A stretch of 64,000 nucleotides of DNA from Candidatus Poseidoniaceae archaeon (GTDB taxonomy: Archaea > Thermoplasmatota > Poseidoniia > Poseidoniales > Poseidoniaceae), in contig CAXRAL010000008.1 of assembly GCA_964228815.1 (NCBI GenBank), forward strand, positions 3,132 through 67,131, read 5' to 3'. This document shows, piece by piece, positions 37,358 to 42,628 of this stretch; position 1 is the first letter of the stretch, and each line of letters starts with the position of its first letter. The position numbers and the translations under genes were made by a program. A model generated the notes under the pieces. The model did no database searches. It saw only the letters and a program-made list of their open reading frames with translations, and was not told the origin of the DNA.

Positions 37358-37393
37358 AACGAGGGACGCTGAGGGCCTTCCGAGGTGGACAGC

Positions 37394-38560
37394 ATGGCCA
37401 GCCCCAATCCGTTGCCGTTGCTTGGAAGCGGGCAGAAAGGGCTTCGCATCCACGACTTGGTCAAAGCGCCTGCGAACACGCCTTGGGCCAAAGCCAAGCA
37501 GCAATCCTGGGATGCAAGTGAACCCGCTACGGTCTACACCACCCCCGAGGTGTTGGCCGACGGAACCCCGTGCAGCGCCGTCACCGTCATTCTGCGGACC
37601 AAGGGTTGCCACTGGTGGTGGTCGTCCGGTTGCACCTTCTGCGGCTACTTCAATGACACACGGGACGACGTGACCAACGAGGACCTTCATGCGCAATGGG
37701 CAGCAGCCAAGGCCAAGTTTGACGATTTCAAAGACCAAGCGATGGTTAAGGTCTACACCTCCGGTAGCCTCTTGGAAGACAGGGAAATTCCTGTCGAATT
37801 CCAAGAAACCGTGCTTCGGGACTGCGCCGAGATGAACAAGGAGCTCATCGTAGAGAGCCGTTGTGAACAACTCACCGAGGAGAAGCTCGCATGGGCAACG
37901 GCCATCAACCCGGATTTCACCGTAGCGATTGGACTGGAGGCCTACGACGACGAAGTCTTGCGGTTCCATGTCAACAAAGGGTTCACCACCAAATCGTGGG
38001 ATCGGGCCGTTGAAAACTTGCAAAAATTCGACCTTCGCATCAAGACCTACTTGATGTTCAAGCCTCCGTTCATGAGCGAAGCCGATGCGCTTGACCATTG
38101 CGTTGCATGGATTGGAGCGGTGGCCGAACAATCCGATGAAATCTCGGTCAACCCGATGAACATCCAGCGCGGGACGGTCATCGACCGACTTCATCGACAC
38201 AACGAGTACCGCCCACCGTGGTTGTGGTCGTTGGTCGACATGATACGGCGAGCCCACCCGCTCATCCATCCGGAAGGCGGCATCAACGGCGATGCAGACC
38301 AAGTTGCCCGCCTCATCGTTCATCCAACGGCTGGAGGAAAAATCCGCGGCTCTCACAACTGCGGCCAGTGTGACGCCGAGGTCGTTGCAGCGATTGAGCG
38401 CTACGCGGTTTCAGGGAGTCTGTTGGAATTTGAAGGCCTCTCATGCGGCTGTGAAGCGGTTTGGCAGGCTGAGGTGCAGCTGGAGCGCCAACTTCCCGTT
38501 CCCCTCGGGTTGTCAAAGCCTCGCCGTGGTTCGCCCATCCATCGTCTGCGCTCCCCCTAA
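37394..38560 (+). CDS. Radical SAM protein, archaeal TIGR01210 family (RaSEA-like, archaeosine pathway)
   Basis: Cluster motif LRTKGCHWWWSSGCTFCGY, plus VKVYTSGSLLEDRE, IGLEAYDDEVLRFHVNKGFT and EYRPPWLWS, remembered as family hallmarks. GAGGTG lies 6 nt before ATG 37394, and GTG 37385 is also open. Confidence 0.65.
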   Translation: MASPNPLPLLGSGQKGLRIHDLVKAPANTPWAKAKQQSWDASEPATVYTTPEVLADGTPCSAVTVILRTKGCHWWWSSGCTFCGYFNDTRDDVTNEDLHAQWAAAKAKFDDFKDQAMVKVYTSGSLLEDREIPVEFQETVLRDCAEMNKELIVESRCEQLTEEKLAWATAINPDFTVAIGLEAYDDEVLRFHVNKGFTTKSWDRAVENLQKFDLRIKTYLMFKPPFMSEADALDHCVAWIGAVAEQSDEISVNPMNIQRGTVIDRLHRHNEYRPPWLWSLVDMIRRAHPLIHPEGGINGDADQVARLIVHPTAGGKIRGSHNCGQCDAEVVAAIERYAVSGSLLEFEGLSCGCEAVWQAEVQLERQLPVPLGLSKPRRGSPIHRLRSP

Positions 38561-38631
38561 GCGAGGGCCTGCACGGCAAAATTCCGTAATTAAAGTGGTC
38601 AATGTTTATCACCGGATGTTTCGTCGCAGGA

Positions 38632-38650
38632 TTGACCCCTATGGGGTCAA
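38632..38650 (+). promoter_or_regulatory. Perfect 8-bp hairpin TTGACCCC-TAT-GGGGTCAA just upstream of the RBS of the 38666 gene
   Basis: Read directly. GAGGT at 38654-38658 and ATG at 38666 follow. TTTATC at 38605-38610 is a possible TATA box. Confidence 0.3.
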
Positions 38651-38665
38651 CTTGAGGTAATCCGT

Positions 38666-38938
38666 ATGACGAACTCCAGAGCCCTCCCCGACACGACCGT
38701 CGGAACGGGAGAACCCGCAGCCAGTCGCATCGTCCTGACCCTGTTCTTTGTTGGGATTCTTGGCCTCTATTCCTTGTTTTCAAACGTCTTCGGTTGGGAC
38801 AACCTTCCGCTGCTTGGCGAACTCGTGCCCTTGGTTCAAAACCTGGGCGGCAGCGGCATCTGGTACTACCTCATCGGCTTCTTGATTGGCATCGGTGCCA
38901 TTGTGGCGACCTTGGTGGGTGAGGTCCTCGCCGAGTGA
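38666..38938 (+). CDS. Small 2-TM membrane protein
   Basis: 90 aa with two hydrophobic helices (IVLTLFFVGILGLYSLF and WYYLIGFLIGIGAIVATLVG), preceded by an SD-like GAGGT. It sits immediately upstream of the large membrane protein. Confidence 0.5.
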   Translation: MTNSRALPDTTVGTGEPAASRIVLTLFFVGILGLYSLFSNVFGWDNLPLLGELVPLVQNLGGSGIWYYLIGFLIGIGAIVATLVGEVLAE

Positions 38939-38952
38939 AGGAGGTGTGATGC

Positions 38953-40938
38953 ATGGAACTCATTTTCATCGCTGGTGGCGTCCTTCTTACGCTTCTCTTC
39001 CTTCTTGCCCAATCCCTCTCCAAAGGCGTCGGAACCGTGGGCGGGGCCCTCAAGCAAGTCGGCTTGTTCGTTCTCCAGAAGAACCCACCCGGTCTCGTCG
39101 ACATCTTTGACGACAAGGACGGCAGTGGTTCCCGAACATGGATGAACTTCGGCATGCTCTGGCTGGTGTTCGCCACGCTCCTTGGTTTCCTCATGGGTTG
39201 GCACACCTACGATCCAACGGCGCTCGATTCGTTGGCCAGCGTGGGTTGGTCGTACGACGACGGCTCTTCGCTCAAGGATGCAACGCTCAACTTCCTCTCC
39301 ATCGCCCTGCTGTACGGGTTGGTGGGCAGCGGCATGGTCGCTGCTGCACGAAACGGCAACGGTCGCTTGGCCAGTGAAGCCAACGCTTCCATGGTCGCCC
39401 TGCTTTTGTCGGTCGTGCTCCTTGCCACCTACATCTTGCCGTTCATCTTCGGCTTCCTCGACATCGACACCTCGGAAAACCCAATTCGAACCGTGCTCTA
39501 CAGCTTAGAGACGCTCGCCGTTGGCTTGTTGCTGGTTCCGGTGTTCATCAACATCCTCATCACCGCTTCGAACCGAGGTGAGCAGGAACTCCAAACGAGC
39601 GTATGGTTCCTCATCATGGGCATCGCCGCCTACATCCTGTCCATGCTCTACATGTTCTTCGGCGAACTGGCAGATGCGACTCAAATGGTGTGGCTGGCCG
39701 AGCGTGTGGCTTACGGCTGGGTCCCGTTGGCGCTCATGTTCTCGGTGGGCTACCACGTGATTCCCATGACGGCCAAGCAACCGATTTGGTCCGGCTCCCT
39801 TCGCGGGGCCAGCATGCTTCTGTTGTTCATCACCATCCCACCGTTCTTCATGACCGATGCATCGGCCAGCAACTTCGTCACCAACCTCGGTGCCATTCTC
39901 TTGACGCTGGGCGTCTTGCCCATCTTTGCCGCCTCGATCAACCTGCTGATGACCGCCAGTTCCGGTCTCAGTGCCGTGGTCAAGCAACCGGGTGCCATCG
40001 CTGCCAGCATGGCGTTCATCGCCCTTCCCTTCTTTGCCATCGGTGGCTACTTCACCGCCATGGACACGTTCGTTGGTACGGGTGAACTTGGCACCATGGG
40101 CGACATCGTCAACATGAGCATGCTGTTCACCGTGGGTGGTCTTCTGGTTCTCGCCGGTGCCTTCACGAACTACCCGAACGCCATTGGCAAGTCCCTCGCT
40201 ACGCCGTCCACGGCCACCTTGGCCACCTGGTTGGTCTTCGTCGGTGGCGTGGCATCAACCCTCACCTACCTCACGGGTGAATTCACCTCCAACGCCGTCG
40301 CTGCTTCTGAGATTGAAGACGTCGTTGCCAACAACGGTGGCTTCTACCTGACCGGTGCAGCCTTGTTCTACTTGGCCGCCATCGGTGCCATCTTGTCCAC
40401 CATGGTCGTCATTCGAACGGGCATTGCTTCCACGGGACGCTCCATTGAAGTGAACGATGTTTCTGACGTGGCCACTTACACGCTGACGTCCGGCTCCTCC
40501 ACCACCATTCGGGACCTCATCGGCCGAGGCGTGGGCGTTGACACGACCCTTGTGGTCAGTGAGACCGAAGCCAACGAAGGAGGTTCCACCGTCATCGCCG
40601 TGGATTCAGCGCTTCACAACGACGAGGTCAAGGAATTCCCCACCACCGCTTCTACTGTGATGGTCGAATTTGTTCAGTACCTCACCAACACCAACCAGTC
40701 GGTGTTTGAGTTGTTCCGAAGCATGGACCTGGACGACTCCGGTAAAATCGACAGCCAAGAATTCCTGGCTGCCCTCGAAGCCTCAGACGTTGAAGCACTG
40801 TCTTCATTGGAAGCCGCCGAACTGGTTGAGAGCATGGATTTGGACGGCGACGGTGAACTCAACCTCCCCGAGCTTGACATCGCCATCGCTCAGATCAAGC
40901 GAGACCACGACATCGTGGCGGCTCAAGAAGAGGAGTGA
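38953..40938 (+). CDS. Polytopic membrane protein (about 13 TM) with a C-terminal EF-hand pair
   Basis: GGAGGTG lies 6 nt upstream. About 13 hydrophobic segments by eye. The C-terminal soluble domain has two canonical 12-residue EF loops: DLDDSGKIDSQE and DLDGDGELNLPE. Confidence 0.75.
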   Translation: MELIFIAGGVLLTLLFLLAQSLSKGVGTVGGALKQVGLFVLQKNPPGLVDIFDDKDGSGSRTWMNFGMLWLVFATLLGFLMGWHTYDPTALDSLASVGWSYDDGSSLKDATLNFLSIALLYGLVGSGMVAAARNGNGRLASEANASMVALLLSVVLLATYILPFIFGFLDIDTSENPIRTVLYSLETLAVGLLLVPVFINILITASNRGEQELQTSVWFLIMGIAAYILSMLYMFFGELADATQMVWLAERVAYGWVPLALMFSVGYHVIPMTAKQPIWSGSLRGASMLLLFITIPPFFMTDASASNFVTNLGAILLTLGVLPIFAASINLLMTASSGLSAVVKQPGAIAASMAFIALPFFAIGGYFTAMDTFVGTGELGTMGDIVNMSMLFTVGGLLVLAGAFTNYPNAIGKSLATPSTATLATWLVFVGGVASTLTYLTGEFTSNAVAASEIEDVVANNGGFYLTGAALFYLAAIGAILSTMVVIRTGIASTGRSIEVNDVSDVATYTLTSGSSTTIRDLIGRGVGVDTTLVVSETEANEGGSTVIAVDSALHNDEVKEFPTTASTVMVEFVQYLTNTNQSVFELFRSMDLDDSGKIDSQEFLAALEASDVEALSSLEAAELVESMDLDGDGELNLPELDIAIAQIKRDHDIVAAQEEE

Positions 40939-42239
40939 ACCCGCAGGGCGTGCTCAGGGTGCGCATTGGCCTCGTTGGGAAACCGAACGTCGGAAAGTCG
41001 ACCTTCTTCAGTGCCGCTACCCTGGCTCAGGTTGACATTGCCAACTACCCCTTCTGTACCATTGACCCCAACGTCGGGGTGGCGTTTGTTGAGGCCCGTT
41101 TGGCGTGCCCGTGCAAGGACCTTCGAGAGAAGCTGGAAGGCGAAGGGCGACTCGAGCCTGCCGCTGAGGACGACCCGCGCCAAGGCAGCCTCTGCGAGCC
41201 GAGGACTGGTTCCTGCGTCGGCCACCGCCGAAGCGTACCCGTGGCACTGGTGGACGTGGCGGGGCTTGTGCCGGGCGCAAGCGAAGGTCGCGGTCGTGGA
41301 AACGCCTTCTTGGCGGATTTGGCCAATTGTGACGTGCTCATCCAGGTCGTCGATGCCGCCGGCTCCACGGACATCGAGGGCCAGTTCAACGGTGCTTCAA
41401 ACGATACCAACGTGGCGGTTGAAGCCGTTCGTGCAGAAATTGAGTTCCTTGAACACGAATTGGATGCGTGGATCGGTGGCTTGCTGGAAGACGGTTGGAA
41501 CCGAGGTGTGCGTCGGGTTCAGGCCGAAGGCGAGAAGGGCTTGACGTCCTTCGTTCATGAACGCCTCAGCGGTCTCGGCGCCACGCCCGTCAAGGTGGCA
41601 CAAGCAATGTTTGAATTCAACCAGCGCCACACCTCCGAGGCTCAACCCTGGGATTGGGGTGCGGCCTCGCTCCATCTCTTGGGCGAGTGCATGCGCAAGC
41701 AGTTGTTTCCCATCGTCTACGCCGCCAACAAGATGGACATTGCACCACCTGACGTGCTCAAGGCCTTCTCCGACCGAACGATGGTGGCCTGCATGGCCGA
41801 CATGGAATTGGCGCTTCGAAGGGCTGCTTCTTCGGGTCTCATCGACTACCAAAGCGGGCAATCCTCCTTCACGGTTCATCCTGGCGCTTCCCTGAACGAG
41901 GCGCAGCAAAAGGCGCTATCACACATGAACCAGCGGCTCGAACAGGCCGGTGGCACGGGACTCGCCCGTCTTATGGATGAGGTCCTCTTCGACCAACTCG
42001 ACCACATCGTGGTCTATCCTGTGCAAGACGAATCGCACTGGGTCGACGGCGATGGACGGGTGCTTCCTGATGCGTTCGTGGTCCCGTCCGGGCTTCATGC
42101 GAAAGCACTGGCTGGACGCGTTCACACCGATTTGGAAGCAGGGTTCATCCGCGGCGTTGACGGACGCACACGTCGCGTGGTTGGCGCCGACCATGAATTG
42201 GGCGATGGCGACGTGCTGAAGATTCACGCCAAGTCGTGA
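40935..42239 (+). CDS. OBG-family P-loop NTPase, YchF/Ygr210-like, with a C-terminal TGS domain
   Basis: G1 motif IGLVGKPNVGKSTFF, then ANYPFCTIDPNVG, G3 DVAGLV, G4 ANKMD, and a TGS-like end (GDGDVLKIHAKS). The GTG start overlaps the upstream stop, and later GTG starts (40950, 40959) are possible. Confidence 0.85.
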   Translation: MNPQGVLRVRIGLVGKPNVGKSTFFSAATLAQVDIANYPFCTIDPNVGVAFVEARLACPCKDLREKLEGEGRLEPAAEDDPRQGSLCEPRTGSCVGHRRSVPVALVDVAGLVPGASEGRGRGNAFLADLANCDVLIQVVDAAGSTDIEGQFNGASNDTNVAVEAVRAEIEFLEHELDAWIGGLLEDGWNRGVRRVQAEGEKGLTSFVHERLSGLGATPVKVAQAMFEFNQRHTSEAQPWDWGAASLHLLGECMRKQLFPIVYAANKMDIAPPDVLKAFSDRTMVACMADMELALRRAASSGLIDYQSGQSSFTVHPGASLNEAQQKALSHMNQRLEQAGGTGLARLMDEVLFDQLDHIVVYPVQDESHWVDGDGRVLPDAFVVPSGLHAKALAGRVHTDLEAGFIRGVDGRTRRVVGADHELGDGDVLKIHAKS

Positions 42240-42241
42240 GT

Positions 42242-42628
42242 TCAGTGGCCCTTGGGGCGGTCGTAGGCCGGCGTTAAGCGAGCCATATCACCCGAATATT
42301 GGCCGCCTCGATAGATGAAGAGGACCGGTGCAGCGAGGGTCAGCAAGATCAGCAAAATGAGGAAAAACAAGCCCCACGGTTTAACGTCGGACAGGGTGGC
42401 TCCCCACAACACCCAGAGGAAGGGGAGGTAAAGGAAGATGCTGTAACGTCGAGCAACGGCAGAGAACCGCGCACTTGAGGTGTTCTTCTCAAAGAGAACG
42501 GGAACTTCGTCCTTCGAGACGAGTCCGTGGTCAACGCCGCAGCGTACGCAGACTTGCGTATTTGGTCCATTGCCGTGAATAAAGAACTCACGAGGATAGG
42601 TGCTACCGCAGTGGCGACAGGTTGGCAT
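42242..42628 (-). CDS. Zinc-ribbon membrane protein
   Basis: N-terminal CRHC...CVRC ribbon followed by two TM helices; 128 aa. Confidence 0.55.
   Translation of the reverse strand: MPTCRHCGSTYPREFFIHGNGPNTQVCVRCGVDHGLVSKDEVPVLFEKNTSSARFSAVARRYSIFLYLPFLWVLWGATLSDVKPWGLFFLILLILLTLAAPVLFIYRGGQYSGDMARLTPAYDRPKGH

Follow-up and report, generated by a model that had tools for sequence, protein, structure and literature searches.

The stretch of DNA analysed here (the window) comprises 64,000 nucleotides (nt) of contig CAXRAL010000008.1 of a Candidatus Poseidoniaceae archaeon, order Poseidoniales. This report concerns two adjacent genes within it, which encode a small protein with two transmembrane (TM) helices and a polytopic membrane protein of 661 amino acids (aa) ending in a pair of EF-hands. 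We consider it highly probable that the large protein is a descendant of CcoN, the catalytic subunit (subunit I) of cbb3-type (C-family) respiratory oxidases, that has lost its cofactors, is dead as a redox enzyme and serves a non-redox role. The main features, with the residues numbered as in the 661-aa protein (the query) and the corresponding ligands as in CcoN, are as follows.

38666-38938, + strand: gene of the small partner (90 aa, 2 TM helices).
38953-40938, + strand: gene of the large protein (661 aa; a CcoN-like membrane domain, in all probability cofactor-less, then a cytoplasmic tail with the EF-hand pair).
38959-39264, + strand: N-terminal module (residues 3-104), specific to the protein family and without alignment to the CcoN sequence.
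39265-40425, + strand: CcoN-homologous core (residues 105-491, corresponding to CcoN TM2-TM12), according to the profile comparison with PDB and Foldseek.
39703-39705, + strand: R251, at the place of the CuB ligand H207; R, K, H or Q in 33 of 45 members.
39844-39849, + strand: F298-F299, at the place of H257/H258; no His in 45 members.
40108-40116, + strand: V386-N387-M388, at the place of H345, V346 and H347; position 387 is D, N or E in 34 of 45 members.
40492-40551, + strand: juxtamembrane cytoplasmic motif G.(S/T)T(I/V)R.L(L/I)..G.G.DT (residues 514-533).
40726-40761, + strand: EF-hand loop 1, DLDDSGKIDSQE (residues 592-603).
40837-40872, + strand: EF-hand loop 2, DLDGDGELNLPE (residues 629-640).

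The two genes are separated by 14 nt and lie in different frames. Each start codon is preceded by a sequence of the Shine-Dalgarno (SD) type: GAGGT 8 nt before the ATG at 38666, and GGAGGTG 6 nt before the ATG at 38953. The original prediction, made from the letters of this stretch alone, had described a 661-aa protein with about 13 TM helices, a 90-aa 2-TM protein encoded 14 nt upstream of it and SD sequences on both genes, and all of this is borne out. The AlphaFold model of the large protein has 13 TM helices, most of which are also found by a hydropathy scan, and the open reading frame (ORF) 38666-38938 contains two hydrophobic segments.

The same prediction could not assign the membrane domain to a known family. 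It can now be placed, by profile searches and Foldseek, as a divergent homologue of CcoN that lacks the cofactor sites. A single sequence was insufficient for this purpose: the query membrane domain alone has no match in Pfam, NCBIfam or PDB, and no transporter signature was found in it in the Pfam or NCBIfam searches; the homology emerged with family-level evidence. Two profiles were used, one built on an alignment of 20 full-length family representatives (A1) and the other on the membrane part of 23 genome-derived orthologues (A2). Against PDB, the A1 profile matches the CcoN chains 6xkw_n (5e-17) and 3mk7_A (1e-16) over approximately 340 positions (profile positions 111-448 against CcoN 61-413), and the A2 profile matches CcoN chains only (7e-11 to 3e-8). 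The Pfam family COX1 (PF00115) is matched by three of the 20 members, one of which (P0144) reaches 7.6e-11, above the cut-off.

The predicted structure gives the same answer. The AlphaFold2 model of the 661-aa protein has a mean pLDDT of 80.4 and a pTM of 0.72, with most TM helices at 85-97. When it is compared with PDB by Foldseek, CcoN structures take the first seven places, with TM-scores of 0.72-0.77 on the target; NorB and subunit I of the ba3 and aa3 oxidases come next. TM2-TM13 of the family correspond to TM1-TM12 of CcoN, so that TM1 is an addition. There are 28 positions that are at least 80% conserved in the family and can be aligned to CcoN; at 17 of them the CcoN residue is identical. 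The residues shared by the query and CcoN include R133/R83, T204/T148, W218/W162, W247/W203, P277/P233 and S280/S236 in the first part of the core, and P323/P282, N330/N289, T334/T293, P408/P367, G412/G371, W426/W386 and G431/G391 further on (query residue first). A phmmer search with residues 1-500 among 1.84 billion representative proteins returned 92 matches, many of them fragments, and the 19 full-length ones all align end to end with the Poseidoniales family. With only 92 representatives in a set of that size, the family is therefore narrow.

What has been lost from the CcoN fold is its metal chemistry. In the numbering of 3MK7, we take H60 and H347 to be the ligands of haem b, H345 the ligand of haem b3, H207, H257 and H258 the ligands of CuB, and Y251 the cross-linked tyrosine. 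The reference for the comparison was the CcoN segment aligned by the A1 profile, in which each named position was checked to be His or Tyr. Neither H257 nor H258 has a His in any of 45 members, and H207 has one in nine of 45. The proximal ligand of haem b3, H345, is His in 0 of 45; the position is aliphatic in 42 of 45 (V, L, M, I), with S, A, T or F among the rest. The haem b ligand H347 is retained as His in six of 45 members and replaced by Met in 11 of 45, the query among the latter, while in the region of H60 a His occurs within five residues on either side in seven of 46. At the position of Y251 there is Tyr in one of 45 and Phe in 29 of 45, including the query (F292). In none of the alignment columns does His exceed 47%. 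A count that does not depend on the alignment agrees: the membrane domain of the query contains two His (H84 and H268, neither of them conserved) and no Cys. The small partner has no Cys either, and for this reason a CxxCH motif is impossible in the small partner or in the membrane domain of the large protein. We infer from these substitutions that the 661-aa protein would be unable to bind haem b, haem b3 or CuB, and hence could reduce neither O2 nor nitric oxide (NO).

The substitutions also suggest what may have taken the place of the metals. Two presumably buried positions have turned polar, and their charges vary in concert: position 387, which sits between the two former haem histidines, and position 251, the former CuB ligand. 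K, R or H at one accompanies D or E at the other in 19 members, an uncharged residue accompanies N or S in about nine, and three show the opposite polarity (Q or G with R). The former binuclear centre would then be plugged by bulky hydrophobic side chains together with a charge-compensated polar pair, 251/387.

The original prediction proposed to determine on which side of the membrane the EF-hands lie. Counting lysine plus arginine (K+R) in the loops gives ten in the predicted cytoplasmic loops of the query and none in the external ones; the family means are 13.1 inside and 0.7 outside, and the excess inside is at least eight in every member. The large protein is therefore oriented N-out/C-in, and its tail with the EF-hands is cytoplasmic. 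In subunit I of haem-copper oxidases (HCO) the termini are on the cytoplasmic side, which agrees with the topology found.

The most conserved stretches of the family are the N-terminal module, the PIWS loop (275-280) and the juxtamembrane motif, not the core shared with CcoN. The N-terminal module ranks first among them. It consists of the extra TM1, with the N-terminus outside; a cytoplasmic loop (24-57) that carries an amphipathic helix and the conserved residues G25, F39, K43 and G57; TM2, one face of which is invariant (W63/W70/F79/W83); and a conserved outer loop (87-104). In the juxtamembrane motif, G526 is invariant, and R520, D530 and T531 are nearly so; the motif is common to both taxonomic families of the order, including the members that have no EF-hands. 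Averaged over the halves of the helices, conservation is 0.53 on the cytoplasmic side and 0.42 on the outer side.

The EF-hand pair was claimed to be canonical, and the claim stands. Pfam EF-hand_7 (PF13499) covers residues 584-641 with 33.4 bits, above its cut-off of 30, and EF-hand_1 (PF00036) reaches 28.9 bits where 25.4 are required; the best PDB matches of the 661-aa protein as a single sequence are calmodulin and centrin chains. The AlphaFold model shows the expected helix-loop-helix pattern in this domain (pLDDT approximately 77-90). Both loops of the query have oxygen ligands at positions 1, 3, 5 and 12 as well as Gly6, and the other EF-bearing members are equally canonical, except for Gly6 of loop 1 in two distant representatives. 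In the family-level clade of the query, where the proteins are 653-863 aa long, the pair is always present and its ligand positions are intact. We believe that the predicted pair is more than a chance resemblance, since the ligands are kept throughout this clade and the ratio of non-synonymous to synonymous substitution rates (dN/dS) of the EF segment is approximately 0.15.

However, the function that was attached to the EF-hands, that of a Ca-sensing signalling or transport device, is not supported as the core function, and no transporter family was matched. In the sister family the proteins are 527-616 aa long and end shortly after the juxtamembrane motif, occasionally with a SAP motif; they have no EF-hands but keep the membrane domain, the 2-TM partner and the juxtamembrane motif. 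Since the whole sister family lacks EF-hands, the pair is a conserved accessory, and Ca sensing cannot be the core function.

The tails vary further beyond the EF-hands. A SAP (PF02037) or Rho_N-like motif is found at the C-terminus of 11 of the 20 representatives; it is absent from the query, whose sequence ends with ...IKRDHDIVAAQEEE. Such ends follow an acidic spacer in P0122-P0125, P0128, P0129, P0137, P0143, P0149, P0157, P0164 and L040. SAP motifs are unusual on an archaeal polytopic membrane protein. One of these proteins (P0157, 857 aa) has an insert of about 170 aa, similar to a coiled coil, between the EF pair and the SAP motif, and another member (L051) has two EF pairs.

EF-hand pairs are also found elsewhere in the source genome, in at least six other ORFs of 99 to 1079 aa (G000:C69:14579-15337, C51:7935-8093, C1:3107-3481, C74:28663-28830, C4:3724-3894 and C45:346-504), and only two of 14 control genomes gave a match. 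EF-hand proteins appear to have expanded in this lineage. It has been noted that the protein families specific to Poseidoniales include Ca-binding domains (PMC9258230), and the approximately six other EF-pair proteins of this genome fit this remark.

Conservation of the two-gene unit, another matter raised by the original prediction, was examined at 26 loci from 19 genera across the order: the 2-TM partner is directly upstream of the large gene at 26 of 26. In the alignment of the small proteins (A3), E16-P17 is invariant before TM1, W66 and G71 are invariant at the start of TM2 and I65 is nearly so; the C-terminus is acidic. Its orientation is probably N-in/C-in. The small protein has no relative in Pfam, NCBIfam or PDB. 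We considered whether it could be a remnant of CcoO, CcoQ or subunit II and found no evidence for this. By the gene content of these loci, the partner is obligate for the large protein.

The distribution of the family was determined in 401 genomes across the phylum with the membrane domain as the query. It is present in 93 of 94 Poseidoniales genomes, mostly as a single copy, and in none of the approximately 300 other genomes of the phylum, including ten of the same class. A search of 19 outgroup genomes with the A2 profile gave nothing convincing, the sole match being a marginal one (E about 1e-3) in a 155-aa ORF. Identity to the query is 55-96% within the genus, 37-53% within the taxonomic family and 25-31% in the other family of the order. 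Identity thus tracks taxonomy, a sign that the family has been handed down vertically since the ancestor of the order; the small-large pair is a vertically inherited core feature of Poseidoniales. Near-identical proteins bear the public name "EF-hand domain-containing protein" [Poseidonia sp. / Candidatus Poseidoniales archaeon], which marks the window as Marine Group II DNA.

Among congeners, dN/dS is about 0.08 in the membrane domain, 0.11 in the linker, 0.15 in the EF domain and 0.06 in the small partner; the values are approximate, dS being high (about 1.2). By this measure both genes are under strong purifying selection.

Taken together, we consider the identity of the large protein as a cofactor-less, non-redox relative of CcoN to be well founded, and offer a mechanism on a much more tentative footing. 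In the large protein the six metal-binding His of CcoN and its cross-linked Tyr are gone, the 12-helix core and many of its structural residues remain, and the N-terminal TM helix with its module has been added; together with the 2-TM partner, this emptied CcoN shell would form a non-redox membrane scaffold or sensor. The conserved cytoplasmic face, made up of loop 24-57, the PIWS loop and the motif after TM13, would dock a cytoplasmic partner, and in the EF-bearing clade Ca2+ bound to the cytoplasmic EF pair would modulate this docking. This scheme seems to us a reasonable suggestion, but it may well prove wrong.

Several observations weigh against the proposal or parts of it. The skew of conservation towards the cytoplasmic side is modest, and strong conservation extends to the outer loop 87-104, which makes a role outside the cell conceivable. 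The idea of a plugged centre is drawn from the types of substitution and their co-variation, not from the coordinates of the model. The polar pair 251/387 is not universal (there are A/S and I/N variants) and could be only structural.

A bolder form of the proposal is that the emptied oxidase shell has become a new device, specific to the order and essential for it, either an ion-conducting or signal-transducing complex in which the vacated haem and copper cavities or the cytoplasmic face have acquired another ligand or partner, or a Ca2+-modulated tether of the membrane to nucleic acid or to the translation apparatus, by way of the SAP tails and the co-encoded YchF-like GTPase described below. 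It is tempting, but we hold it to be doubtful.

The alternative that fares best is a Ca2+-regulated ion channel or transporter, in which the vacated haem sites and the proton and oxygen channels would conduct H+, Na+ or Ca2+ under the control of the EF-hands. The HCO fold has built-in proton and gas channels; the membrane domain of the family contains conserved intramembrane polar residues (E142, N200, T204, N330, T334 and the invariant Y473, plus the 251/387 pair); the canonical EF pair is subject to selection; and the high Ca2+ of seawater makes the sensing of an influx plausible. However, the His residues have mostly given way to the bulky hydrophobic F, L, M and V, which suggests that the cavities have been filled rather than opened. 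Among the polar residues, N330, T334 and T204 are no more than a legacy of CcoN, and the 251/387 pair is lost in some members. The sister family manages without EF-hands, so Ca gating is not the core function, and Pfam and NCBIfam reveal no similarity to transporter families. We regard a channel as possible but improbable.

The gene downstream of the pair suggests another alternative. The two genes flanking the pair are these.

37385-38560, + strand: RaSEA, the archaeosine radical-SAM protein (TIGR01210, 288.7 bits); a conserved upstream neighbour, given for context only.
40935-42239, + strand: a YchF-related GTPase (YGR210-like G4 and a TGS domain), which begins with a GTG that shares nucleotides with the stop codon of the large gene (GTGA).

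At the 26 loci the order RaSEA, small gene, large gene, YchF-like GTPase gene is collinear wherever the locus extends far enough (24 loci reach the GTPase). The distance from the stop of the large gene to the start of the GTPase gene is -44 to +93 nt (mostly -4 to +59) at 22 of 23 loci, and a 4-nt overlap as in the window occurs at six of these 22. The GTPase gene is probably co-transcribed with the large gene. It could thus be proposed that the large protein is a membrane receptor or tether whose cytoplasmic face binds the YchF-like GTPase, or whose SAP tails attach nucleic acid, with Ca2+ as a modulator; the same-strand, close and repeatedly overlapping arrangement, the SAP or Rho_N-like ends of over half of the representatives and the high conservation of the cytoplasmic loops and of the motif after TM13 are all in favour of it. 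Nevertheless, one locus has a 1.35-kb gap between the large and the GTPase genes, the query has no SAP motif, and the conservation of synteny in these genomes may be neutral. Moreover, in outgroups of the same class the GTPase gene is abutted, with a gap of 0-3 nt, by large genes of CARDB-domain surface proteins; it seems that the YchF-like GTPase gene is habitually coupled in translation to whatever gene is upstream. The linkage to the GTPase is weak functional evidence, because in the outgroups RaSEA is not close to this gene and the unrelated CARDB or PKD genes are equally tight. We consider such a tether unlikely.

The outgroups also bear on the origin of the locus. An insertion of the pair into an ancestral RaSEA-YchF adjacency was rejected, as the two genes lie apart in 11 outgroup genomes. 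An older homologue beside YchF was rejected as well, the genes found there encoding CARDB, PKD or bactofilin-domain proteins.

Equally unlikely, in our opinion, is a role without catalysis in the genuine respiratory chain, as an accessory or assembly subunit, for instance a structural partner of the A-type oxidase or of another membrane complex. A genuine A-type COX1 is indeed encoded elsewhere in the source genome, and 66 of 70 Poseidoniales genomes have one, so that the two proteins occur together throughout the order; moreover, HCO subunits are known to form interfaces in supercomplexes, among which are the Foldseek matches 9g83, 8smr and 6xkw. However, the genuine cox genes always lie at a different, unlinked locus; the neighbours of the pair are RaSEA and the GTPase rather than respiratory genes; cytochrome c partners are lacking, as is Cys in the small partner and the large membrane domain; and EF-hand and SAP tails would be unexpected on a respiratory subunit. 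As to the genuine oxidase itself, the COX1 match in the source genome is at G000:C15:45867-47228, outside the window, in an ORF of about 776 aa; the length of about 770-800 aa across the order suggests an oxidase of the fused subunit I+III type.

We give almost no credence to a protein that is still redox-active and holds haem or copper by ligands of an unconventional kind (Met, Tyr, Lys): Met at the position of H347 in 11 of 45 members and the invariant Y473 could be cited for it, but no conserved candidate ligand is found at any of the seven cofactor positions, the position of H345 is almost always aliphatic and never His, and the unit contains no electron-donor partner (cytochrome c, cupredoxin or a quinol-site signature).

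We return to the gene pair to describe its presumed expression signals and one further neighbour.

38605-38612, + strand: a TATA-like box, TTTATCAC, about 55 nt 5' of the small gene; its TTTAT core is at the same position in the congeneric loci.
38632-38650, + strand: a hairpin with a perfect 8-bp stem and a 3-nt loop, TTGACCCC-TAT-GGGGTCAA, in the presumed 5' untranslated region (UTR), ending just 5' of the SD sequence.

The box and the hairpin are kept in three congeners (L003, L005 and L006), and the stem is varied in L014; more distant species (L015-L017) have a different hairpin (ACCCG...CGGGT) at the equivalent place. As the box and the 5'-UTR hairpin are conserved in congeners, the small-large unit probably has a promoter of its own, with the putative TATA-like box as its element. 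The hairpin could be a stabiliser or a regulatory element of the unit.

On the opposite strand, at 42242-42628, a 128-aa protein is encoded with an N-terminal zinc-ribbon-like motif of four Cys (CRHCGS...CVRCG) followed by two TM helices. Its gene is convergent with the GTPase gene and occupies the same position in several genera of the taxonomic family of the query (L034-L037).

Few membrane enzymes have been studied as intensively as subunit I of the HCO, whose metal ligands are taken to define it. A subunit I that is strictly conserved and strongly selected, yet has none of these ligands, indicates that non-redox tasks can also fall to this fold; the present one comes with an obligate new partner and with cytoplasmic modules of the signalling type. 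Among the archaea of the surface ocean the Poseidoniales are a dominant group; the gene pair is universal in this order and confined to it, which makes it a lineage-defining membrane component. There is also a practical side: pipelines that detect the COX1 signal in some members could miscount the protein as a second terminal oxidase, and the current public label mentions only the EF-hand domain. Should the notion of a new device be true, the protein would be among the first cofactor-free members of the HCO superfamily with a defined new function. The subunits of the C family of HCO are mainly bacterial, and the question arises by which route a C-family-like subunit entered the archaeal order Poseidoniales.

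A published description of a cofactor-less, CcoN-like protein of Poseidoniales was not found in the literature, and no characterised protein is known to work like the 661-aa protein. Of the known systems, the closest is CcoN/FixN (PDB 3MK7, 6XKW, 8SMR, 9G6B, 9G83). The 12-helix core fold is common to both (TM-score 0.72-0.77), the core has the same N-in/C-in orientation, and the identical residues include the P-x-(W/Y)-S loop, N289/T293, P367...G371 and W386...G391 (CcoN numbering). In contrast to CcoN, the Poseidoniales protein is archaeal and confined to one order; it lacks the ligands of haem b, haem b3 and CuB as well as the cross-linked Tyr, and it adds an N-terminal TM helix with the conserved module and a tail with the T-I-R...DT motif, the EF pair and, in relatives, SAP. 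Unlike the ccoNOQP operon, the 26 loci have no adjacent genes of the cytochromes CcoO and CcoP and have the novel 2-TM partner instead. The original prediction allowed that the membrane domain might belong to a known family that routinely carries an EF-hand tail. A known family has indeed been found, but CcoN is not routinely EF-tailed.

Next in fold similarity comes NorB of the cytochrome c-dependent NO reductase (PDB 3O0R, 4XYD), with a Foldseek E of about 1e-5 and TM-scores of 0.73-0.75; it is a subunit I of the HCO superfamily and a near relative of the C family. With the membrane-only profile A2 it gives no match at E <= 1, and unlike the Poseidoniales protein it keeps all haem histidines and the FeB site.

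The tail has its own counterparts in calmodulin-like pairs and in prokaryotic EF-hand proteins (the XopAW family, NF041410), which likewise have two canonical 12-residue loops (D/D/S-or-D/G/.../E) arranged as a pair. The difference from calmodulin-like proteins is that here a single pair is fused to the cytoplasmic end of a polytopic protein with the oxidase fold. By descent, the 661-aa protein is a member of the HCO superfamily and has its nearest relative in CcoN of the C family, while differing from it in every cofactor-related respect.

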